Assembly: GCA_045130235.1 (NCBI GenBank) | Contig: JBGUPJ010000036.1 | Span: forward strand, 24,142 to 88,141 | Reading direction: 5' to 3' | DNA: 64,000 nt | Source: Bacteroidales bacterium | GTDB lineage: Bacteria > Bacteroidota > Bacteroidia > Bacteroidales > WCHB1-69 | In this document: positions 1-62,197 of the stretch, piece by piece | Layout of the letters: each line of letters opens with the position of its first letter | Position numbering within the stretch: position 1 is the first letter of the stretch | Notes under the pieces: model-generated | Told to the model about the DNA's origin: nothing | Database searches by the model: none | The model's input: only the letters and a program-made list of their open reading frames with translations | Program-made: the position numbers and the translations under genes

Positions 1-744
1 GCCGTAATCAGTGCCGTATGCACTGATGTTCACAATCTGATAACCATACTTGTCGTATGGCCTGATAGAGGAGCCTCCACTGCCTTTTTCCAACACCAGC
101 TCATTAGGCAGACTGTCGAAGGCTTCTTCTTCGGAGTAGTACATTTTGCAAGAAAGGAAATACTCCTTCAGACGTCTGTCAATCTCTTCCACAGAAACCG
201 TTTTCCAGTCCACATCAGGGAATGTCTGTTCTGAAATACTTTCTTTGATAGCATCCGACGCCACTCGATAATTCCAATCCACATAGTGAGTCGGCAAGCC
301 GACAATGCGATCGTATTTATTGCCCACTGGCACTTTATTGCGACCACTGACTTGCAGATAAAACTCTTCCTTGACTTTTGTATTGATTTGCATTCTCCAC
401 TTAAGTTCCTTGACATCAGCCAGTTCACGTTTAAGAATCTCTCCCAATGTCACATCCTTCGGTACCATCTCATCCTCTTCCACATAACCCGGGACACGGG
501 CAATCCCTTGATGAAAATAGCAGTTGCTCCCGTAGAGAATCATCTCGTCACAACCTTCCATTTCGTCTTCCGTGTGCGAAAGGATTTCTTCCACCACCTT
601 ACGGTCCTCTTCGTGCTTGCTCCACTTATTGACCAACAATTGCTGACCTTCGGCAAAGGTGTTGACGTGACCGATAATGCTGCGCCCGGAGTCGCCGAAA
701 AAATCGTCATCCCATACTACAAATTTTGTTTTCTTTTCTTTCAT
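1..744 (-). CDS. hypothetical protein, first 248 codons only (ORF runs off the left edge)
   Basis: Absent from the ORF track because it is edge-truncated. The reverse strand has ATG at 744-742 and reads MKEKKTKFVVWDDDFFGDSGRSIIGHVNTFAEGQQLLVNKWSKHEED... with no stop down to base 1. Third positions are GC-rich like the neighbouring genes. No family recognised. Confidence 0.55.
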   Translation of the reverse strand, partial: MKEKKTKFVVWDDDFFGDSGRSIIGHVNTFAEGQQLLVNKWSKHEEDRKVVEEILSHTEDEMEGCDEMILYGSNCYFHQGIARVPGYVEEDEMVPKDVTLGEILKRELADVKELKWRMQINTKVKEEFYLQVSGRNKVPVGNKYDRIVGLPTHYVDWNYRVASDAIKESISEQTFPDVDWKTVSVEEIDRRLKEYFLSCKMYYSEEEAFDSLPNELVLEKGSGGSSIRPYDKYGYQIVNISAYGTDYG

Positions 745-3922: not shown

Positions 3923-3985
3923 GTAAAAAACTAAAACTTAGAGAGTTAAATAATGTGTCATCACATTTTCGGCCATAAAATCATT

Positions 3986-4017
3986 AAAAAAATCACATTT
4001 TCGAAAATGGTGCGGGG
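3986..4017 (+). repeat. 32-nt direct repeat, copy 1 (AAAAAAATCACATTTTCGAAAATGGTGCGGGG)
   Basis: Matches 7025-7056 with one mismatch. An extra TCACATTTTCG lies at 3961-3971. The TCACATTTTCG...GGTG.GGG core resembles the 21-bp units at 17034-17075. Confidence 0.8.
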
Positions 4018-4232: not shown

Positions 4233-6860
4233 CTATTCGCTAATGATGGTAAGCGAACCGTGATACTCCACAGCACGGGTGAAGCCTTCATAACGGAAGG
4301 TGAAGTAGAACACCCCGTCGCTCAAGCCAGCGGCTGTGAATCCCTGCTCCGCATTGTAAATCACGCCGTCCTTCTCGTATGTACGGTAATCATTGCACTC
4401 ATACACTTTTTTGCCCCACCGGTTGTATATGGTCAGATTGTTGTGCAGGTCAGGATTCAGATTCTTGATGGCAAACACATCGTTGATATTGTCGCCGTTG
4501 GGGGTCAGCACATTCGGGAAAACAAGGTCGTCCTCCACATAAACGGTATGTTCCATTGTGGACGAACAGCCCATGTACTCCAACGAAAGCGTCACGATGA
4601 ACTCGCCCCAACTGCCGTAGGTATGTGAAATCATATACTCAGTGGTGCTTTCGGTATTTCCATCTCCGAAATCCCAATTCCAAACGAACGGATCATTGAC
4701 AGGCATCTGTGAAATATCAGTAAGATTAACGAATTGTATATCAGTTGCTTCTGATAAAAAAATCCTTTCAGGCTGCGGTACAAAATCAACCGTCGGCAAA
4801 GAGATGATGTTCAAATCCAACTCCGAAATACTGTCACAACCGAACGCATTGGTCAGATTCTGCGTATAGACAAAATCCCCCACGATATTGCTCTCCGCTT
4901 CCGAAACGACAAATCCGTACTGGTTATATCCGGTCCCCTGACAAATCGTGTCCTTGATCACCTCATGCTGGACGGGCAAAACAGTCAATGTGAGTGTTAC
5001 AATGCTATCACATCCATTAACACTCAATTCATTATGAACATAAACATGCTCCCCTACCTCGGTTGTATCGGTGTTAATGACAAAGCCGTCTTGGTTGTAA
5101 ACGTTCCCTGTGCAAACTTCGCCCTCAAGCTGAATGTCGTAAAGCGGCGCGACGGTCAGATGCAGCTCCATCACCGAATCGCAATCGGAGCCGCTGAACA
5201 AAGTGTCGAGATAGATGCCTGCCTCGGAAATTTCGGTTCCATAGAAATCATAACTTTCACCTTCACAAATGGTTGCATAAATCGGAATCGGATCCATCGG
5301 AGGCACATTGATGGTTTGGTAGAGGGTGTCATAACTTGTACCGTAGCAGTTGTTGCCCTCGCGTTCCACCACCACCATAAGCGGATAGCTGCCCGGACTA
5401 GTATAAGTATGCTGAACCGGACATCCCGCCAAGGAATCGCCATCGCCAAAGAACCAAATCATATTGTCGTAAGCATAATTGAGCAACAAATAGAAATCGA
5501 TAGGATGGTTCATGCAATAGAGTTGATTTAGGGGGATATCAACCGTATTTATTTCATTCACAAACATTTGTGTATTCAAATCCATCGTACTGGAGCCGAC
5601 GGAATAGGCATAGGAAGTCACATCGTACAAGCCATAGACGTGGGCGATGAAACCGCTGTCGCTCTCCAGTGTATGGGTGTTGTGCGTGATGTTCATGCGG
5701 GCATAGGAATAAGCCGGATTGCTTGGCAACGCGATGAAATTGGAGGAGATGTTCGCTCCGTCCAGCGTAACGGAGCCCACGTTGGTGGTGGGAGTGACCA
5801 CATTGACATAGTGGTTGGTTGTGGTGCCCCCATACTCGTAGGTGCCGAATGTGATTTTGCCGACTCTCTGCTCAATCGGGGTGATGATGACCATGGAGGG
5901 GTCGCCAGCAGTGCCACCGCACGACTGGCCGACCAGATAGAGGAAAGTGGTTGCCGGGCCGCTGGTCTCAATATAGGAGGCGTCCTGCGATGAGGTGAGC
6001 ATAAACTCGTAGGTCGCGCCGGCAGCCAGCGTGGTGACGAGGTTGCCGTCAACGCGAACGGTGGTATTGTTGTTGAGTGCCGTCACACGGACCTGGTCTT
6101 TGGTGCGCCCAAAGGAAGAGGTCACAACGAATTTGGTCCCCCAATAAGCGGTAGGCACCATCTGTTCGTAAATATGGTCGCAATAGGTGCAACCGGCGGG
6201 CACATTCGCGCATTTGTTGCCAGCATAAACGGCTATTTTCTTGCAGTCGTCGGCGATGATGGTGGAACCCGAGAAATCGTCATAAGCGCTCTGCGTCTGG
6301 AGCTGGTAGCATTGTCCCGGCTGCAAAGTGATCGAAAATGTGGAATTGGCCGAATGTCCGGAGGAGGTAGCCGCCGTGGGGGTTATATTCACAATTGTGT
6401 TGGGTTCGGTTCCCACGACCATCATAGAACTGCCGTTAAGGTTTGTCTGATAGGTCTGAACGACGTATTCGTTGGTCAGGGCGTCGGTTGGAAGGATATT
6501 GGCGCCATCAAAAGAGGCGTTCTTGTAATTCATGGAAAAGACGGAGATGGTATCGGTTGCCACGATATGGCAACCCAAATTGGCCACGGTGCCGAAGGCG
6601 GTCATATAGGCCTGGGCCAAGGGAATGACAACATCGATACGTCCGTTTGCCGGAACAGAGAAAGAGGTTGACCAGTTGGTGGAGGGATTGGTGACGGTAC
6701 CGGTACAGGCATGTTCGGCGGAAATGATCAGCGCCGTTTCCGTCGGGGTGGAGTTGTTGGTCATGAATGAGAACCAGAAATCGGTGCCCTGCGTGGATGA
6801 ATTTTGCGCAAAGCAAGAGACGGTAAAGACCAAACTTAAAAAGAATAATAGTTTTCTCAT
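4233..6860 (-). CDS. large secreted adhesin-like protein with a T9SS type B (gliding-motility CHU_C) C-terminal sorting domain
   Basis: Evidence comes from several domains. It has a signal peptide. The N-terminal GTDFWFSFMTN resembles the IgGFc-binding-protein N-terminal fold. There are two PKD-like segments (FGDGDS...HTYTSPGSY; WDFGDGNT...HTYGSWGEF). Three tandem ~55-aa Cys-containing repeats end in GCDS..L.LTV.P. The C-terminus reads FPNVLTPNGDNINDVF...GVFYFTF. Confidence 0.85.
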   Translation of the reverse strand: MRKLLFFLSLVFTVSCFAQNSSTQGTDFWFSFMTNNSTPTETALIISAEHACTGTVTNPSTNWSTSFSVPANGRIDVVIPLAQAYMTAFGTVANLGCHIVATDTISVFSMNYKNASFDGANILPTDALTNEYVVQTYQTNLNGSSMMVVGTEPNTIVNITPTAATSSGHSANSTFSITLQPGQCYQLQTQSAYDDFSGSTIIADDCKKIAVYAGNKCANVPAGCTYCDHIYEQMVPTAYWGTKFVVTSSFGRTKDQVRVTALNNNTTVRVDGNLVTTLAAGATYEFMLTSSQDASYIETSGPATTFLYLVGQSCGGTAGDPSMVIITPIEQRVGKITFGTYEYGGTTTNHYVNVVTPTTNVGSVTLDGANISSNFIALPSNPAYSYARMNITHNTHTLESDSGFIAHVYGLYDVTSYAYSVGSSTMDLNTQMFVNEINTVDIPLNQLYCMNHPIDFYLLLNYAYDNMIWFFGDGDSLAGCPVQHTYTSPGSYPLMVVVEREGNNCYGTSYDTLYQTINVPPMDPIPIYATICEGESYDFYGTEISEAGIYLDTLFSGSDCDSVMELHLTVAPLYDIQLEGEVCTGNVYNQDGFVINTDTTEVGEHVYVHNELSVNGCDSIVTLTLTVLPVQHEVIKDTICQGTGYNQYGFVVSEAESNIVGDFVYTQNLTNAFGCDSISELDLNIISLPTVDFVPQPERIFLSEATDIQFVNLTDISQMPVNDPFVWNWDFGDGNTESTTEYMISHTYGSWGEFIVTLSLEYMGCSSTMEHTVYVEDDLVFPNVLTPNGDNINDVFAIKNLNPDLHNNLTIYNRWGKKVYECNDYRTYEKDGVIYNAEQGFTAAGLSDGVFYFTFRYEGFTRAVEYHGSLTIISE

Positions 6861-7024: not shown

Positions 7025-7056
7025 AAAAAAAATCACATTTTCGGAAATGGTGCGGG
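7025..7056 (+). repeat. 32-nt direct repeat, copy 2 (AAAAAAAATCACATTTTCGGAAATGGTGCGGG)
   Basis: Near-identical to 3986-4017. It lies in the divergent region between the adhesin gene and the lipoprotein gene, 28 bp upstream of the -7 box at 7084. Confidence 0.8.
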
Positions 7057-15784: not shown

Positions 15785-16849
15785 CTAAACCACCCTGCTG
15801 TACCCGCCGCTTCTCTTGCTGCCGCTGTGGGTAATCTGTCCATGCCGCCTGAGTTCGGAGAGGCAGCGTTCCACGGTGCTCAGCGAGAAGTCCGTTCCGG
15901 CCACGATGTCCGCCGTATTGCAGTTCGGATGGGCTTCGATGTAAGATAGCACCTCCCTGACCTTTCCCTCAGCGGCAGATGCCGGTTTACGCCTGGCAGT
16001 GGTGGAAGTTGGAGTCTCCGGGATTTTATTTTCGTCTAAAACAACCTCCTTCTGCGAAAGGATTTCGGAAATTCTTTCAGCCACTTCCGCCTGCGTGCGG
16101 GCCTCCAATGGGAAGGTGGTGGGCACCTCCTCCCACGGCATCTGCTTCATCATCACCCTGTTATCTTTGCACGACTGGATATGCTGGAAAGGCACCAGCA
16201 AGGTGGTTGTGATGCGGATGAAATCCTCCTCGCCAAACAGCTGCTCCAGATGCTTCATGGAACCCAACCGCGTGTATTTTTCATTTTGCACGGTGTAGAT
16301 TGTGGTGAAATTGCGTTGCTGCTCACAGTAGAAAATGTCATCCATGGTCAACAGCTGGATGTTGCTGTCCTTGTCGGCGACATCCAGCATGCGGACCCGC
16401 TCGTACACGATCTTGGTCTCGTCCTCCAACGACTGTTGGTAATTTTTACGATCCCTGAACAAAAACGGGAAGAAATTCAAAGCGAGATTCCGTCCAATGA
16501 CCTCAAACTGATGGGAGGCGAAAAACTCGAAATATCCCACCAGTTTAATAGCATTGGCATGGCGCGATACAATAAAACGGTAGGCAAGAGCCGTCTCCAC
16601 AACGCCCACCACGATAGCACTGAGCACCACAACCGCCCAATACACTTGCGGATATTTGGGATAAAGCTTGGGATAAAGCACCAAGTAATTGAAATACAAT
16701 GAGCCTAACAACAGAATGCCCGAAATGGCTTCCTTGACAAAACCGCCCGAGAATGGGTGCAAAATAAGGTTGCGGGCAAAAAACCAAAGCACTACTGCAC
16801 TAAACAGGACATTGAGCAAAACGATGGCAATTTTCTTCGAATGTTTCAT
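15785..16849 (-). CDS. membrane-anchored LytTR-domain regulator with an extra C-terminal winged-helix domain (paralog 1)
   Basis: Start trimmed to MKHSKKIAIVLLN (the -7 box at 16874-16881 overlaps the track start). About 4 TM helices. LytTR-like core IQLLTMDDIFYCEQQRNFTTIYTV..KYTRLGSMKHLEQL..FIRITT. C-terminal wHTH REVLSYIEAHPNCNTADIVAGTDFSLSTVERCLSELRRHGQITHSGSKRSGGYSRVV. Confidence 0.7.
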   Translation of the reverse strand: MKHSKKIAIVLLNVLFSAVVLWFFARNLILHPFSGGFVKEAISGILLLGSLYFNYLVLYPKLYPKYPQVYWAVVVLSAIVVGVVETALAYRFIVSRHANAIKLVGYFEFFASHQFEVIGRNLALNFFPFLFRDRKNYQQSLEDETKIVYERVRMLDVADKDSNIQLLTMDDIFYCEQQRNFTTIYTVQNEKYTRLGSMKHLEQLFGEEDFIRITTTLLVPFQHIQSCKDNRVMMKQMPWEEVPTTFPLEARTQAEVAERISEILSQKEVVLDENKIPETPTSTTARRKPASAAEGKVREVLSYIEAHPNCNTADIVAGTDFSLSTVERCLSELRRHGQITHSGSKRSGGYSRVV

Positions 16850-16873
16850 AAAGGCAGGATGTATATACGGCAG

Positions 16874-16881
16874 CAAAAATA
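16874..16881 (-). promoter_or_regulatory. -7 box TATTTTTG for LytTR paralog 1
   Basis: Reverse complement of CAAAAATA, 25 nt upstream of the ATG at 16849. Same spacing as in paralog 2. Confidence 0.5.
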
Positions 16882-16916
16882 CTCAATTCTTTCCAAACAA
16901 TCTTCCCCAAATGGGT

Positions 16917-17079
16917 TTATCCCTTCACTCATCTTCATTTATTCCTTCATTAGCCTTCTTAATTATATTTTTATAAAAATTTGATTATCAAAATATTATA
17001 AATCCATACAGCATTTTCATTTGAACCTTCCCGTCACATTTTCGTGGTGAGGGTTCACATTTTGGGTGTGAAGGGATAA
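16917..17079. promoter_or_regulatory. mirror-symmetric repeat sites in divergent promoter region 1 (candidate LytTR binding sites)
   Basis: On the left, TTATCCCTTCAC (16917-16928) and the degenerate TTATTCCTTCAT lie 22 bp apart. On the right is a 21-bp tandem repeat TCACATTTTCGTGGTGAGGGT / TCACATTTTGGGTGTGAAGGG (17034-17075) ending GTGAAGGGATAA (17068-17079), the exact reverse complement of the left site. Confidence 0.55.
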
Positions 17080-17097
17080 AATTTCATCAAATGAATG

Positions 17098-17105
17098 TAT
17101 TTTTG
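17098..17105 (+). promoter_or_regulatory. -7 box TATTTTTG for the small lipoprotein gene
   Basis: 19 bp downstream of the repeat sites and 43 nt upstream of the ATG at 17148. Confidence 0.5.
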
Positions 17106-17147
17106 CCCCGCTTTTAACCCATATTACTAACCTAAAAAATTCAAAAC

Positions 17148-17348
17148 ATGAAAAAGTTATTGGTTATTTTCGCTTGCGTTGCCCTTGCTGGCGCATTCAC
17201 TTCATGTGACAAGAAATGCCACTGCAAACAATGGGTTGGTGGTGTTTCTGCTGCTCACGTCTTCGAACCCCAAGACGACATGAAATGCTCGGATTACAAC
17301 ACCGTTGCAGAAGTCAATGGCGTAAAAACCGGCATTGAATGCAAGTAA
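17148..17348 (+). CDS. small Cys-rich lipoprotein (66 aa)
   Basis: Lipobox signal peptide MKKLLVIFACVALAGAFTSC. Mature part CDKKCHCK...KCSDY...KTGIECK. Paralog of the gene at 25255-25470. Confidence 0.7.
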   Translation: MKKLLVIFACVALAGAFTSCDKKCHCKQWVGGVSAAHVFEPQDDMKCSDYNTVAEVNGVKTGIECK

Positions 17349-17367
17349 TTGGCGAAATGTATGGGAC

Positions 17368-17403
17368 GGAAGCGGGACAGTTGCTGTTCCGCTTCTTTTT
17401 TTT
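17368..17403 (+). terminator. rho-independent terminator after the small lipoprotein gene
   Basis: GGAAGCGGGACAG-TTG-CTGTTCCGCTTC followed by TTTTTTTT. Confidence 0.75.
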
Positions 17404-17671
17404 GTAGGGTTATCAGATGTTGACACCTTGTAGGGCTGTCATAATATGGCAGCCCTACTAACCATTGCTTGTAATGTCCCGATGGTGCGGTAACCATTCA
17501 CCCCGAAGGGGTGATATTTTGGTAACCCCGTACAAGCGTAGCGCAGTGCGGGGATGTGCGATGGGTCGTGCGCCAGCCCGCGGCACGCTGACAGAAAAAT
17601 AGTACTTGTTGGGAAGTTTGCCGCGGAAGAACGGGCAAGGGGATTCCGTGTAAAAAGCACATCGCCCCAAC
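17404..17671. repeat. GC-rich mosaic intergenic element, second copy type
   Basis: Hairpins GTAGGGCTGTCAT-AAT-ATGGCAGCCCTAC and CACCCCGAAGGGGTG are present. Sub-motifs are shared with 4018-4232. There is no tRNA T-loop and no RNase P, SRP or tmRNA signature. Confidence 0.35.
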
Positions 17672-18739
17672 TCACACCCTGCTGTACCCGCCGCTCTTCT
17701 TGCTGCCGGTGTACTGGATTGCCCCTCGTTTCTTGAGCTCAGCGAGACAGCGCTCCACGGTGCTCAGCGAGAAGTCCGTTTCGGCCATGATGTCCGCCGT
17801 GTTGCAGTTGGGATGGGCTTCGATGTAGGAAAGTACCTCCCTGACCTTCTCTTCAGCGGGCAATGCCGGTTTCCGCCTGGCGGTGGAGGAAGTGGGAGCC
17901 TCCTGGATTTTATTTTCGTCCAAAACAACCTCCCTCTGCGAAAGGACTTTAGCAATCTTTTCGGCCGCCTCTGCCTGCATTCGGGCTTCCAACGGTAAGG
18001 TAGTGGGAACCCTTTGCCACGGCATCTGCCTCATCATCACCAAGTTGTCTTTACACGAATGAATGTACCGAAACGGCACCAGCAGGTTGGTCGTGATGCG
18101 GACGAACTCCTCTTCGCCGAGCAGTTGCTCCAGATGTTTCATGGAACCCAAGCGCGTATAAGTCTTATTCTTCACCGTATGAATCGTGGTGAAATTCCGT
18201 TGCTGTTCGCAGTAAAATATGTCGTCAATGGTCAATAGCTTGATATTGCTCTCCTTGTCGGTGACATCAATTTTCCGGACTTCTTGGTAAACCACCTGCA
18301 CCTCTTTCTCCAACGATTGTCGCAACTGCTGACGCTCTCTGAACAGATAAGGGAAAAAATTCAATGCAAGGTTACGACCAATGGTAAAGTACAAAATCGT
18401 TGAAAAAAAATTATAGTAGCCGATATGCTGGATAAACTGTGGATTCAGTGAAACAATAAAGGGATATGCAATAGCAAGATCAGCCATACCAACCACAATA
18501 GCAAGGATAATCACAGCGACCCAGTATATAAAGTACGAATATTTTTTGTAAATCCTTGGATACAGCAGAAAGTAATTGGCATACAAAGAACCCAACAACA
18601 GAAGTGCGGAGAGGGCCTCTTTGAGAAAACTGCCGGCGTATGGTCGCAAAACTGAATTTTGGGTAAAGAGCCAAATTACAGTGGCACAGAACAGGATATT
18701 CAGCAAAATGATGACAATTGTTTTCAGGTATTTTTTCAT
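17672..18739 (-). CDS. membrane-anchored LytTR-domain regulator with an extra C-terminal winged-helix domain (paralog 2)
   Basis: Start trimmed to MKKYLKTIVIILLN. Same architecture as 15785-16849. The C-terminal two-thirds are near-identical at protein level (IKLLTIDDIFYCEQQRNFTTIHTV...GSKKSGGYSRV). Confidence 0.7.
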   Translation of the reverse strand: MKKYLKTIVIILLNILFCATVIWLFTQNSVLRPYAGSFLKEALSALLLLGSLYANYFLLYPRIYKKYSYFIYWVAVIILAIVVGMADLAIAYPFIVSLNPQFIQHIGYYNFFSTILYFTIGRNLALNFFPYLFRERQQLRQSLEKEVQVVYQEVRKIDVTDKESNIKLLTIDDIFYCEQQRNFTTIHTVKNKTYTRLGSMKHLEQLLGEEEFVRITTNLLVPFRYIHSCKDNLVMMRQMPWQRVPTTLPLEARMQAEAAEKIAKVLSQREVVLDENKIQEAPTSSTARRKPALPAEEKVREVLSYIEAHPNCNTADIMAETDFSLSTVERCLAELKKRGAIQYTGSKKSGGYSRV

Positions 18740-18763
18740 TGAAGCAATATTTGAATGAGGACG

Positions 18764-18771
18764 CAAAGATA
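18764..18771 (-). promoter_or_regulatory. -7 box TATCTTTG for LytTR paralog 2
   Basis: Reverse complement of CAAAGATA, 25 nt upstream of the ATG at 18739. Confidence 0.5.
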
Positions 18772-18807
18772 CTCAAATCCCTTACAACATTTTCACAAAA
18801 CACCGTT

Positions 18808-18973
18808 TTATCCCTTCACAAATCTACATTTATCCCCTCACAAACCCGTTTAAAATAAATTTTTATAATATATTGATTATTAGTATGTTATCACACCCAT
18901 ACAGAGTATTTATTTTAATCTTTATAAAAAAATTTTTCCTGTGAGGGTTCACATTTTGGGTGTGAAGGGATAA
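18808..18973. promoter_or_regulatory. mirror-symmetric repeat sites in divergent promoter region 2
   Basis: TTATCCCTTCAC (18808-18819) and TTTATCCCCTCAC (18829-18841) sit on the left. GTGAGGG (18941-18947) and GTGAAGGGATAA (18962-18973) sit on the right. 34 nt (GTGAGGGTTCACATTTTGGGTGTGAAGGGATAAA) are identical to copy 1. Confidence 0.55.
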
Positions 18974-19044
18974 ATTTTGCACAAAATGATTGTAATTTTG
19001 TTGCTGAGAATCGCAATGAAGTATATTCATCAAGAAAATAATCG

Positions 19045-19052
19045 TACCTTTG
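19045..19052 (+). promoter_or_regulatory. -7 box TACCTTTG inside a 21-nt cassette GAAAATAATCGTACCTTTGCA (19034-19054)
   Basis: 29 nt upstream of the ATG at 19081. The same 21-mer recurs at 20612-20632. A second candidate box, TAATTTTG, lies at 18993-19000. Confidence 0.5.
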
Positions 19053-19080
19053 CAGATGTTAAATTTTAAATAAAAACACT

Positions 19081-20592
19081 ATGATTACTATTAAAGCTTT
19101 TTATGATCTGCTGGATTGCGGAGAAGGTACAGTGGTTGAATTCAAAACATCGAAAGGTGGGTTTCCCAATTCGTTTTGGGCCACCTTTTCGGCATTTGCA
19201 AATACAGATGGCGGAATAATTGTGCTCGGGGTAAAAGAGAAAGGCAAACAGGCTATTGTGGATGGCTTGACAAAAGCAGAAGTCGTAGTCTTAAAAAAAC
19301 AGTTTTGGGACATGGCCCACAACAAACAGAAGGTAAGCCTACCTCTGTTGAGAGATGATGAGGCTCACGTGGAGGAGATTCCGGGCGAGGGTTGGGTGCT
19401 GGTGTGCGAAGTCCCTAGGGCGAGTTACGACCAGCGACCAATATTTCTAAATGGGCAACCCTACGGCAACACCTATAAAAGAAGACATGAAGGTGACTAT
19501 TGTTGTACCGATGACGAAGTGCGGCAGATGTTTTCAGATGCCAACCTAAAGAACAATTCTGCAGATGCACGAATTCTGAAAGGTTATTCGATGGAGGACA
19601 TTGATCTGGTAACATTACACAAATATCGGAAAGCTTACGACAATCGGCATGAAAATCATCCATGGTCTGAACTTTCAGATATGGATTTTTTGAAAAAAGT
19701 AGAGGCTTGGCGTCAAGACCGCGAAAAAGGGGAAGAGGGTTTCACAGTGGCAGGCATCATGATGTTCGGAAAGACGCAAAGCGTGACAGATCAAAGCTGT
19801 ATGCCGTGGTTCTTTCCCGACTATAGAGAACATCTGAGCATGATAGAGGGGGAGCGATGGAGCGACAGAATTTATCCTGATGGAACATGGGAGGTTAATT
19901 TGTACCAATTTTTCTCACGAGTATATCAGAAACTTTCGTTACTGTTGCCCAAACCATTTCGTTTGGCAGATGATGGCTTAACTCGTTTGGAATTTACGCC
20001 TGCCCATATTGCTATACGTGAGGCTTTGGCCAATTCTTTAATTCATGCGCAGCACAATTCAATGGGGAACATAGTGGTGGACGGTTGGATAAACCGTATC
20101 GTAATCAGCAATCCAGGGAGTATGCTGGTGAGCATTAACGAGTTCTATGAAGGACAACACAGTGTTTGTCGCAATCCACTGATTCAAAAGATGTTTGTGT
20201 TGATTGGTGTAGGAGAAAAGGCTGGGAGTGGTGCAGACGTAATAGTAAAAGGTTGGGAAAAGCAGAAATGGATGAAACCCACAATCAGGCAGTGCGAAGA
20301 GCCGGAAAGAGTGGAAATGGAACTGCGAATTGGAGTGGAAGAGAATCGTAATGGCGAATTAAATGGTCAATTAAATGGTCAATTAAATGGTCAATTAAAC
20401 GAGAGCCAAAAAGAAACGTTAGAGTTTATCAGTAAGCACGTTGGCTTTAACACAACAAAAATTGCAAAAACACTTAACAAGCCTTTTCGGACTATTGTCA
20501 AGCATATTAATGTCTTGATAGAAGCAGGATTGATAGAGCGGCGCGGAAGCAAAAAAACGGGTGGGTATTACATTGTTGAAACAAAGAATTAA
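19081..20592 (+). CDS. AlbA_2 (Schlafen-like) DNA-binding domain + ATPase-like domain + C-terminal wHTH protein ('RecG-like' putative transcriptional regulator family)
   Basis: N-terminal VEFKTSKGGFPNSFWATFSAFANTDGGIIVLGV is the AlbA_2 signature. C-terminal wHTH reads ...TIVKHINVLIEAGLIERRGSKKTGGYYIV. The linker contains NGELNGQLNGQLNGQLN. The gene is noticeably more AT-rich than the backbone genes. Confidence 0.7.
   Translation: MITIKAFYDLLDCGEGTVVEFKTSKGGFPNSFWATFSAFANTDGGIIVLGVKEKGKQAIVDGLTKAEVVVLKKQFWDMAHNKQKVSLPLLRDDEAHVEEIPGEGWVLVCEVPRASYDQRPIFLNGQPYGNTYKRRHEGDYCCTDDEVRQMFSDANLKNNSADARILKGYSMEDIDLVTLHKYRKAYDNRHENHPWSELSDMDFLKKVEAWRQDREKGEEGFTVAGIMMFGKTQSVTDQSCMPWFFPDYREHLSMIEGERWSDRIYPDGTWEVNLYQFFSRVYQKLSLLLPKPFRLADDGLTRLEFTPAHIAIREALANSLIHAQHNSMGNIVVDGWINRIVISNPGSMLVSINEFYEGQHSVCRNPLIQKMFVLIGVGEKAGSGADVIVKGWEKQKWMKPTIRQCEEPERVEMELRIGVEENRNGELNGQLNGQLNGQLNESQKETLEFISKHVGFNTTKIAKTLNKPFRTIVKHINVLIEAGLIERRGSKKTGGYYIVETKN
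20350..20397 (+). repeat. in-frame 12-bp tandem repeat x4 (AATGG(C/T)(G/C)AATTA)
   Basis: Encodes the NGEL-NGQL-NGQL-NGQL linker of the AlbA_2 protein; three units are identical. Confidence 0.9.
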
Positions 20593-20622
20593 CGGCGTTA
20601 TTGCCTTTTTAGAAAATAATCG

Positions 20623-20630
20623 TACCTTTG
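20623..20630 (+). promoter_or_regulatory. -7 box TACCTTTG inside the second copy of GAAAATAATCGTACCTTTGCA (20612-20632)
   Basis: 21 nt upstream of the ATG at 20651. The cassette is identical to the one before 19081. Confidence 0.5.
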
Positions 20631-20650
20631 CAACCAATATTTTTTCAGCC

Positions 20651-61831: not shown

Positions 61832-61924
61832 AAGGTTAATGGTTAATTTCCTAAAGAACAACAACTTGCGGGGAGCATTCACAGAATCCTCACGGACATG
61901 TATGCTTTTATCCCGAAAGCTACA

Positions 61925-62092
61925 TTTGCAGATGCGGGCAGGTCTTCTGGCTTGTTCAGCTACCCGCCGCCTTCCCGACAATCGGAGTTTTTGTCAGTGG
62001 CGCAGTGGCGAGGAGCGGAGGATGAACTTTACAGCTACGGGAATAGCTCCTGATTTTCACAGGCTTCCCTTTTAATCCGTGGAACCCGAATC
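61925..62092 (-). promoter_or_regulatory. cobalamin (B12) riboswitch aptamer upstream of nrdDG
   Basis: The minus strand reads GGTTCCACGG..TTAAAAGGGAAGCCTGTGAAAATCAGGAGCTATTCCCGTAGCTGTAAAG...GCCACTG...CGGGAAGGCGG...AAGCCAGAAGACCTGCCC. This includes the conserved core and the B12 box (plus-strand 61936-51). A minus-strand -7 box TATTTTTG lies at 62099-62106. Confidence 0.85.
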
Positions 62093-62197
62093 GCAGGGCA
62101 AAAATACACTTTTTTTCCATCCTGTTTCTGTACAAAATGGATTTTTTTTTCACAATTTTTGGCTGAAAAGTGGAATAATTTATTCAGATAAATTTTG

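Follow-up and report, generated by a model that had tools for sequence, protein, structure and literature searches.

LytTR regulators bind paired 9-bp direct repeats, separated by 11-13-bp spacers, just upstream of the -35 element, and autoactivate (PMC6193735). A membrane-bound variant of this scheme is HigX of Caulobacter crescentus, a membrane-associated protein with four transmembrane (TM) segments and a LytTR domain, which needs its TM domain for activity, binds envelope-gene promoters, and has been labelled by its authors a possible “fused LRS” (LytTR regulatory system; PMC13384398). Here we describe two paralogous genes from a 64,000-nucleotide stretch of a rumen Bacteroidales bacterium genome (contig JBGUPJ010000036.1, hereafter the window), whose products join a membrane domain, a LytTR domain and a C-terminal winged helix in one polypeptide. 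Each gene faces a divergent gene across an upstream region with TGTGARGGGATAAA-type units phased 21-22 bp, arranged in two mirror-image arms around an AT-rich core and flanked by Bacteroidetes -7 boxes (Table 1). Judged from these sequences and their relatives, this organization suggests a hitherto uncharacterised family of switches that regulate themselves and control genes for cell-surface proteins.

At the protein level, paralog 1 comprises a helical membrane domain (residues ~1-135), a long helix reaching to ~153, the LytTR domain (~156-250), a further helix, a disordered linker and the winged helix (~296-354). This three-part architecture, proposed in an earlier note made by reading the sequence alone, was upheld by the profile searches and structure prediction which that note had suggested. 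LytTR (PF04397) scored 36.5 bits in copy 1 and 38.8 bits in copy 2, both above the Pfam cut-off of 22.6, and HTH_24 scored 25.3 bits in copy 2 (cut-off 21.9) and 20.3 bits, just below the cut-off, in copy 1. No Pfam match to Response_reg was obtained in either paralog, the N-terminus being a membrane domain and not a receiver. An AlphaFold2 model of paralog 2, built from 30 homologues (mean pLDDT 75.6), has helices at residues 2-27, 38-64 and 69-98, a short one at 100-106 and a long one at 108-153, then a beta domain of about ten strands in the LytTR region (156-249, pLDDT 82-90), a helix at 252-275, a disordered linker at 273-291, and three helices (296-308, 314-321 and 325-337) plus a two-stranded wing at 296-354. 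The top Foldseek matches of this model in the PDB are LytTR domains, namely 3d6w, AgrA (4xqj, 3bs1) and ComE (4cbv), at E-values of 1e-5 to 5e-4; those to 3d6w and AgrA have E-values near 1e-5, target TM-scores of 0.74-0.78 and a root-mean-square deviation of 2.6-2.9 Å. Lower-ranked matches are MarR-type and Z-alpha winged helices (TM-score 0.81 for Z-alpha 4kmf). A sequence search of the PDB with the regulator returned nothing significant, and the fold search alone gave matches.

The two proteins are 67% identical and, as had been judged by eye, their genes are more alike over the 3' two-thirds than over the 5' membrane part, with 59-69% nucleotide identity over the first 450 nt and 77-82% over the remainder. 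The earlier count of about four TM helices stood in part: three segments are clear in a hydropathy scan, and the fourth (~108-130) is amphipathic and weakly hydrophobic, its assignment coming from the AlphaFold helix and from topology logic. Loops between the helices are ~10 residues or fewer, leaving no periplasmic domain, and the positive-inside charge pattern fits an N-in/C-in topology.

Compared by architecture, these regulators would share with HigX an N-terminal bundle of about four helices, as predicted with the fourth only weakly supported, the lack of a periplasmic domain, a cytoplasmic LytTR domain and the link to envelope genes. HigX differs in being without the C-terminal winged helix and in belonging to another phylum, and direct repeats are not mentioned in the text of the paper describing it (PMC13384398). 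A second parallel is offered by the HdrRM and BrsRM systems of Streptococcus mutans, in which a membrane-controlled LytTR regulator acts on 20-22-bp-phased repeats just upstream of the promoter with positive autoregulation; these paralogous systems share targets, much as the two window paralogs have identical sites (PMC6193735). There, however, the regulator and a membrane inhibitor of 3-4 TM segments are separate proteins of one operon, the membrane protein inhibiting, whereas each window regulator is one polypeptide with an added winged helix and a bidirectional control region of mirror-image arrays. No small membrane-protein gene that could be an LRS-type operon partner lies downstream of the window regulators, whose membrane domain and LytTR domain belong to one open reading frame (ORF). 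With AgrA, ComE and AlgR they have in common the predicted LytTR fold (Foldseek TM-score 0.74-0.75 to AgrA) and the presumed recognition geometry of phased direct repeats, but they are without a receiver domain or a partner histidine kinase, the input being the fused membrane domain. ToxR, CadC and BcrR also combine a DNA-binding domain and TM segments in one membrane-acting protein, and BcrR has a 4-helix membrane sensor without a periplasmic domain (surveyed in PMC10269533); their sole DNA-binding module is an N-terminal winged helix or XRE domain, whereas in the window regulators the TM segments come first and two modules follow.

The winged helix itself resembles the C-terminal module of DIP2311/AlbA_2-type and SoFic-type proteins, with which it shares a G-S-K-K-x-G-G-Y wing motif, and it gave a faint DIP2311-like_C match, a Foldseek match to 3lmm and weak SoFic matches. 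In those proteins it follows an AlbA_2/ATPase or Fic module and not a LytTR domain, and its function there is also unproven. The earlier remark that two DNA-binding modules on one membrane protein were not known to be characterised needs narrowing, since a 4TM-LytTR factor is now described (HigX, PMC13384398); it still applies to the added winged helix and to the cis-architecture.

Turning to that cis-architecture, the promoter layout previously described was found in both upstream intergenic regions (IGRs) at the spacings given for it. In IGR1, upstream of copy 1, TTATCCCTTCAC lies at 16917-16928 with a variant 22 bp further on, and across the core GTGAGGG (17047-17053) and GTGAAGGGATAA (17068-17079) lie 21 bp apart; the sites in IGR2 are at 18808-18819, 18830-18841, 18941-18947 and 18962-18973. 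The right arm of copy 1 does contain the reported 21-bp tandem repeat, its 20-nt units (17034-17053 and 17055-17074) being 80% identical. The regulator-proximal units occupy homologous positions in related loci (-76 to -80 and -98 to -102). A run of 34 nt is indeed identical in both IGRs, as against 63% overall identity by global pairwise alignment (mean column identity in a MAFFT alignment, 80%). Allowing at most one mismatch, GTGARGGGATAA occurs five times in the 64-kb window, every time within one of the two IGRs, where 0.38 occurrences per 64 kb would be expected and none of 100 shuffles reached five. No RNA family was found by Rfam in the regulator region, and of a sigma-70 consensus scan, which is irrelevant for Bacteroidetes promoters, only the terminator output was used.

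Likeness between the two window copies is nevertheless weak functional evidence, because the duplication unit takes in the IGR. A total of 86 related loci (designated by L numbers) were collected, and their upstream regions were reduced to 61 with <95% mutual identity, which come from gut and rumen metagenomes and have 44-100% protein identity; the layout counts that follow include only the loci scorable for each feature. A TAnnTTTG box precedes the regulator ATG in all 61 regions (19-27 nt away in 60 of them, 32 nt in one), and a divergent -7 box is present in 53/61. The units of the divergent-gene arm are spaced by 21 bp in 12/12 loci and those of the regulator-side arm by 22-23 bp in 18/20. 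The core nearest to the divergent -7 box is 22-24 nt from it (31 of 32 loci), the core nearest to the regulator -7 box 37-42 nt from it (30 of 33), with two to three units at 22-bp spacing, and the span between the arms is 152-157 bp (29/33). Seven conserved blocks stand out when information content is profiled over the 61 regions (Table 1), and the same blocks recur at the same offsets down to 44-45% protein identity, while the flanking IGR sequence is not kept. Even in the distant member L087 (32% identity), an inverted TTTATCTTCTCATTTT / AAAATGAGAAGATAAA pair is kept in a shorter region.

This comparison, which the earlier note had proposed, shows sites and spacings kept at fixed offsets across the 61 non-redundant loci, and it bears directly on whether the IGR similarity could be a mere by-product of a recent tandem duplication, devoid of regulatory meaning. 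The duplicated unit takes in the IGR and the two IGRs align throughout, as such a by-product would have it, but the 34-nt identical run stands out against its 63% background, and conservation which persists at 44-45% protein identity, when the flanks have not been kept, excludes a pure duplication artefact; we give that explanation next to no probability. The shared layout of the two copies, earlier taken as a sign of function, is in part a product of the duplication, and as far as sequence can tell functional constraint is shown by the distant orthologues and not by the two window copies.

The repeat cores also vary between loci, and do so in concert. Pairs found in the two arms include CCCTCAC/GTGAGGG, CCTCTCAC / GTGAGAGG, CCTCGCA / TGCGAGG, CGCCTCGA / TCGAGGCGA (L059) and GCCCCA / TGGGGCA (L083), each variant being matched, in the opposite arm of its locus, by its reverse complement. 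Between the arms of one locus the longest inverted match has a mean length of 9.44 nt, compared to 7.46±0.23 when arms are permuted across loci (0/5000 permutations reach the observed value), and core class agrees between arms in 46 of the 61 loci, compared to 25.3±2.9 expected (0/20000). Since the loci are phylogenetically related, they do not count as independent trials; even so, at least four or five separate core types take part. Such arm-to-arm concordance argues for the adjacent regulator reading the sites.

Covariation also helps to evaluate whether another protein, for example a global CRP/FNR-like factor, might read the repeats, with the LytTR-winged-helix protein binding elsewhere or not at all. 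The TGTGA and TCACA half-sites do resemble CRP-family motifs, but their spacings (TCACA-N8-TGTGA-N4-TCACA) do not fit CRP, and the 21-22-bp direct-repeat phasing is a LytTR signature (PMC6193735). Moreover, cores that vary by locus and covary between arms would not be produced by a single global factor and suggest a locus-encoded reader, which makes this alternative improbable. Within what sequence comparison can offer, the conserved offsets and the covariation are the strongest in-silico support available for autoregulation and control of the divergent gene.

What lies on the other side of these control regions is nearly always a gene for an exported protein. A signal peptide starts 51 of 56 divergent ORFs, with a lipobox in 35 of those 51, and the commonest partner (23/61 loci) is an uncharacterised lipoprotein of ~166 aa; others are Por_Secre_tail/SprB cargo of the type IX secretion system (T9SS), Fib_succ_major proteins and a ~347-aa lipoprotein. 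The ~166-aa family has a ..QFTFTGL.. motif near its C-terminus and no Pfam match (e.g., L034 2199-2699 and L013 2188-2688), and it may represent an ancestral cargo or co-sensor. For copy 1, the divergent gene is, as previously read, a small Cys-rich lipoprotein (66 aa), followed 3' by a terminator-like hairpin (17368-17396), and in L002 and L004, too, a regulator copy has this gene as its partner.

For copy 2, the AlbA_2 gene had been taken as the divergent target, and this part of the autoregulation and divergent-control proposal did not survive the comparison, the conserved phased repeats and covarying cores speaking for the remainder. A perfect 22-bp duplication (AGAAAATAATCGTACCTTTGCA, at 19033-19054 and 20611-20632) brackets the AlbA_2 gene, which is a later insertion: in L010 the uninterrupted control region faces a 168-aa gene, the ancestral partner, and L003 also has this gene directly opposite the regulator. 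Because the 22-bp duplication carries the TAnnTTTG -7 box, the inserted and the displaced gene both keep a promoter copy. The C-terminal module that the AlbA_2 protein was said to share with the regulators is of the same winged-helix subtype (34% identity over 56 aa to copy 2, with a common GSKKxGGY wing), the three proteins ending in GSKRSGGYSRVV (copy 1), GSKKSGGYSRV (copy 2) and GSKKTGGYYIVETKN (AlbA_2). By sequence, this similarity is a family resemblance and no evidence of a functional tie between the genes. The AlbA_2 protein also gave weak PADLOC matches to Schlafen-like parts of pAgo-associated and SIR2-associated proteins.

Copy number varies among relatives, with two regulator copies in the window, three in L002, and in L001 a single intact copy, besides a frameshifted one and an orphan control region. 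The frameshifted pseudogene of L001 keeps intact sites. In the orphan regions (L001, and similarly L003), both repeat arms are kept beside a 474-aa SprB/Por_Secre_tail gene, and the regulator gene is gone. Orphans that keep their sites imply regulation in trans by a paralog, in keeping with the two window copies having identical sites.

Invertible segments are common upstream of Bacteroidales surface-protein genes, and the mirror-image arms of 13-15 bp could be seen as the inverted repeats of such a phase-variable segment, all the more as perfect inverted repeats of 13-14 bp flank a ~140-bp AT-rich segment between surface-protein genes. We rejected an invertible promoter because neither -7 box is enclosed by the repeats, both being external to them, no strand-switch joints were found in four metagenome runs, the central segment has one orientation in every alignable locus, and no recombinase gene is adjacent. 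Each arm is furthermore a phased direct-repeat array and not a single inverted repeat, so that inversion appears very improbable.

The reading we favour, and hold to be moderately probable, is a membrane-tethered LytTR activator, fused-LRS/HigX-like, which autoregulates and drives the divergent surface-protein gene. Its N-terminal bundle of about four helices, lacking a periplasmic domain, would act as anchor and presumed signal sensor, with the long helix connecting this bundle to the cytoplasmic LytTR domain and a flexible linker leading on to the winged helix. Oligomers would occupy both arms of the region upstream of their own gene by binding its direct repeats, which are phased at 21-22 bp and have a TGTGARGG core with a flank; one arm abuts the -33 region of the divergent promoter, and the other is placed ~40 nt upstream of the -7 box of the regulator gene. 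Binding there would then activate the regulator gene, in a positive feedback comparable to that of LytTR regulatory systems, together with the divergent lipoprotein or secreted surface-protein gene. Having identical sites and diverged membrane domains, the window paralogs would probably feed two membrane signals into one pair of control regions. In this scheme we infer that the regulator is the binder, that its LytTR domain and not its winged helix reads the repeats, that binding activates, and that the input is a membrane signal.

Several points weigh against it. First, repression would be served equally well by a site that overlaps the -33 region, the same protein on the same sites then occluding the divergent -33 region and looping or blocking its own promoter until released by a membrane signal. 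The divergent unit closest to the promoter ends ~18 nt short of the -7 box, thereby covering -33; a repression loop would be compatible with arms held at a conserved 152-157-bp span on either side of an AT-rich core that can bend; and HigX can either activate or repress the higBA promoter (PMC13384398). On the other hand, characterised LytTR systems of this repeat geometry are activators with positive feedback (PMC6193735), and own-promoter units 37-42 nt upstream of the -7 box are at a typical activator position. In addition, the divergent -7 box has no canonical TTTG at the appropriate distance (read by eye, not systematically scored), as expected for an activator-dependent promoter. We regard a repressor as unlikely, though it is the main rival.

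Second, were the weakly hydrophobic fourth segment not to span the membrane, the DNA-binding domains would be placed on its wrong side. Third, gene conversion between the arms could account for part of the covariation. Fourth, when protein columns were compared with site class (A, GTGAGGG; B, GAGAGGG; C, GCGAGGG) by mutual information, the top columns were scattered over linker, LytTR domain and winged helix, and phylogeny confounds this residue-site association, class C forming one tight clade, with no clean specificity determinant emerging. Finally, rumen metatranscriptome contigs include one that spans 17125-17355 (the lipoprotein gene), as well as fragments of regulator 1, but these are of low depth, too sparse for start sites, and may include DNA.

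The winged helix could also itself bind the repeats, a last point to be set against the LytTR activator reading, although a near-invariant recognition helix facing varying cores argues otherwise. Hardly any variation between site classes is seen in this recognition helix (S-L-S-T-V-E-R-C-L) or in the GSKKxGGY wing, whereas LytTR loop positions 178, 181, 183 and 185-193 differ from class to class, which suggests that the LytTR domain reads the variable core; the winged helix, going by the same alignments, would read something constant, be it AAATRTG, the central palindrome or a protein partner. It is tempting to carry this further and speculate that the 21-bp units are bipartite, both domains of one tethered protomer reading each of them, and that the two arms are bridged, although as one joint claim this is rather doubtful. 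Variable LytTR loops would then read the locus-specific core and the invariant winged helix the constant element (either AAATRTG, in the divergent arm, or TTGATAATCAA, the conserved palindrome at the centre), while the arms, ~150 bp or ~14 helical turns apart, would form a membrane-apposed loop over the AT-rich core that fires both promoters together. If true, this would provide orthogonal positive-feedback (bistable) switches diversifying the surface lipoprotein and T9SS repertoire of rumen Bacteroidales.

The regulator protein was searched against clustered databases, with 498 matches in a 90%-clustered database and 313 clusters at E<=1e-3 in a 50%-clustered library. Full-length matches (340-400 aa) number ~100 among the representatives listed, with identity down to ~21-29%. 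Among 64 diverged representatives (19-43% identity), LytTR is kept in 63 and HTH_24 matches at E<=0.001 in 41, other winged-helix models matching too, so that the three-part architecture is a stable family trait. The named relatives come from uncultured rumen, sheep, yak and horse-gut “Bacteroidales bacterium” metagenome-assembled genomes, where they are annotated in generic terms (‘LytTR family ... domain-containing protein’, ‘winged helix-turn-helix transcriptional regulator’ or ‘hypothetical’). NCBIfam has no model for the family, and a search of the literature for LytTR proteins with two DNA-binding domains, or for LytTR in connection with Bacteroides lipoproteins, found nothing. Some homologues (P0012, P0101, P0105 and P0112) look mosaic, with membrane N-termini and winged-helix C-termini in varying combinations, which suggests, from their sequences, exchange between paralogs.

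A wider regulon had also been suspected from a related motif at 3961-4017 and 7033-7056, and this did not hold. The motif belongs to a 31/32-nt direct repeat (AAAAAAATCACATTTTCGRAAATGGTGCGGG, 3986-4017 and 7026-7056) that brackets a T9SS adhesin gene (4233-6860; 875 aa, IgGFc_binding + PKD + CHU_C), is a single unit with 4 nt more between TCACATTTT and its G-rich part than the regulator units have, and was found in none of the 86 related loci scanned; its left copy sits between two convergent gene ends. That adhesin and AlbA_2 genes are both bracketed by a short duplication hints, on sequence grounds, at a recurrent cassette-insertion mechanism in this genome.

Two further elements were observed in the window. 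A palindrome with a 13-bp stem (GTAGGGCTGTCATAATATGGCAGCCCTAC, 17430-17458) reaches 400-600x depth in gut metagenome contigs, compared to ~10x for its flanks, joins many different flanks and has a DNA fold z of -4.4; it looks like a dispersed hairpin of the REP (repetitive extragenic palindrome) or MITE (miniature inverted-repeat transposable element) kind. The sole Rfam match in the window is a cobalamin riboswitch (RF00174, 98 bits, 61920-62103, minus strand).

Table 1. Regulator genes, control-region elements, divergent partners and related features (positions are those of the window unless a related locus is named; rc, reverse complement)
Feature	Position	Strand	Basis or detail
Regulator paralog 1, 354 aa	15785..16849	minus	ORF, Pfam, 67% identity to paralog 2
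-7 box of paralog 1, TATTTTTG	16874..16881	minus	read from sequence
Regulator-proximal arm, IGR1	16916..16951	minus	two units 22 bp apart (rc GTGAAGGGATAAA, degenerate ATGAAGGAATAAA)
AT-rich core, IGR1	16952..17033		conserved central element TTGATTATCAA at 16981-16991
Divergent-gene arm, IGR1	17034..17080	plus	two 21-bp units (TCACATTTTCGTGGTGAGGG / TCACATTTTGGGTGTGAAGGGATAAA)
-7 box of divergent lipoprotein gene, TATTTTTG	17098..17105	plus	read from sequence
66-aa Cys-rich lipoprotein gene, presumed divergent target of copy 1	17148..17348	plus	ORF
Regulator paralog 2, 355 aa, same architecture as paralog 1	17672..18739	minus	Pfam, AlphaFold, Foldseek
-7 box of paralog 2, TATCTTTG	18764..18771	minus	sequence
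Regulator-proximal arm, IGR2	18790..18842	minus	units 18807-18820 and 18829-18842 (22 bp apart); degenerate third 18790-18800
AT-rich core, IGR2	18843..18939		central element TTGATTATTAG at 18874-18884
Divergent-gene arm, IGR2, TGTGAGGGTTCACATTTTGGGTGTGAAGGGATAAA	18940..18975	plus	34 nt identical to IGR1
Ancestral divergent -7 box of IGR2, TAATTTTG	18993..19000	plus	
Second -7 box, IGR2 side, TACCTTTG	19045-19052		
Insertion with AlbA_2/HATPase_c_4/winged-helix gene (19081-20592)	19033..20632	plus	bracketing 22-bp direct repeat
Displaced ancestral partner of copy 2, 168 aa	20651..21157	plus	Cys-rich N-terminus, one TM segment
Conserved blocks 1-4			divergent -7 box; TTTATTCCCTCACA; GAAATGTGAACCCTC (strongest); AAAATGTGAA
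Conserved blocks 5-7			central GGTAATA..TTGATAATCAAT.TATTAT element; two copies of TGTGAGGGGATAAA; AATTGAGTATCTTTGC
Orphan control regions	L001 8057-8181; L003 7841-7965		
Regulator pseudogene locus	L001 1461-2158		

Transcriptional control in the Bacteroidales is known mainly through hybrid two-component systems, extracytoplasmic function (ECF) sigma/anti-sigma pairs and SusR-like sensors, and to our knowledge LytTR factors have barely been studied in the phylum of this order. 4TM-LytTR factors and LytTR autoregulation through direct repeats are already known; the novelty lies in the strictly conserved winged helix that has been added, in a bidirectional control region whose mirror-image arrays keep a fixed span, in its systematic association with genes for exported proteins in the Bacteroidales, and in a natural range of covarying specificities. 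The family is large, occurs in tandem arrays and is almost always wired to exported-protein genes. It extends the “fused LRS” idea from HigX to another phylum, and it poses the question of what role a second DNA-binding-type domain plays on a membrane-tethered factor. Its covarying core types, of which there are at least five, amount to natural specificity swaps, from which the recognition rules of LytTR domains could be read from sequence. If the switches are bistable, they would offer gut and rumen bacteria a recombinase-free route to surface variation.

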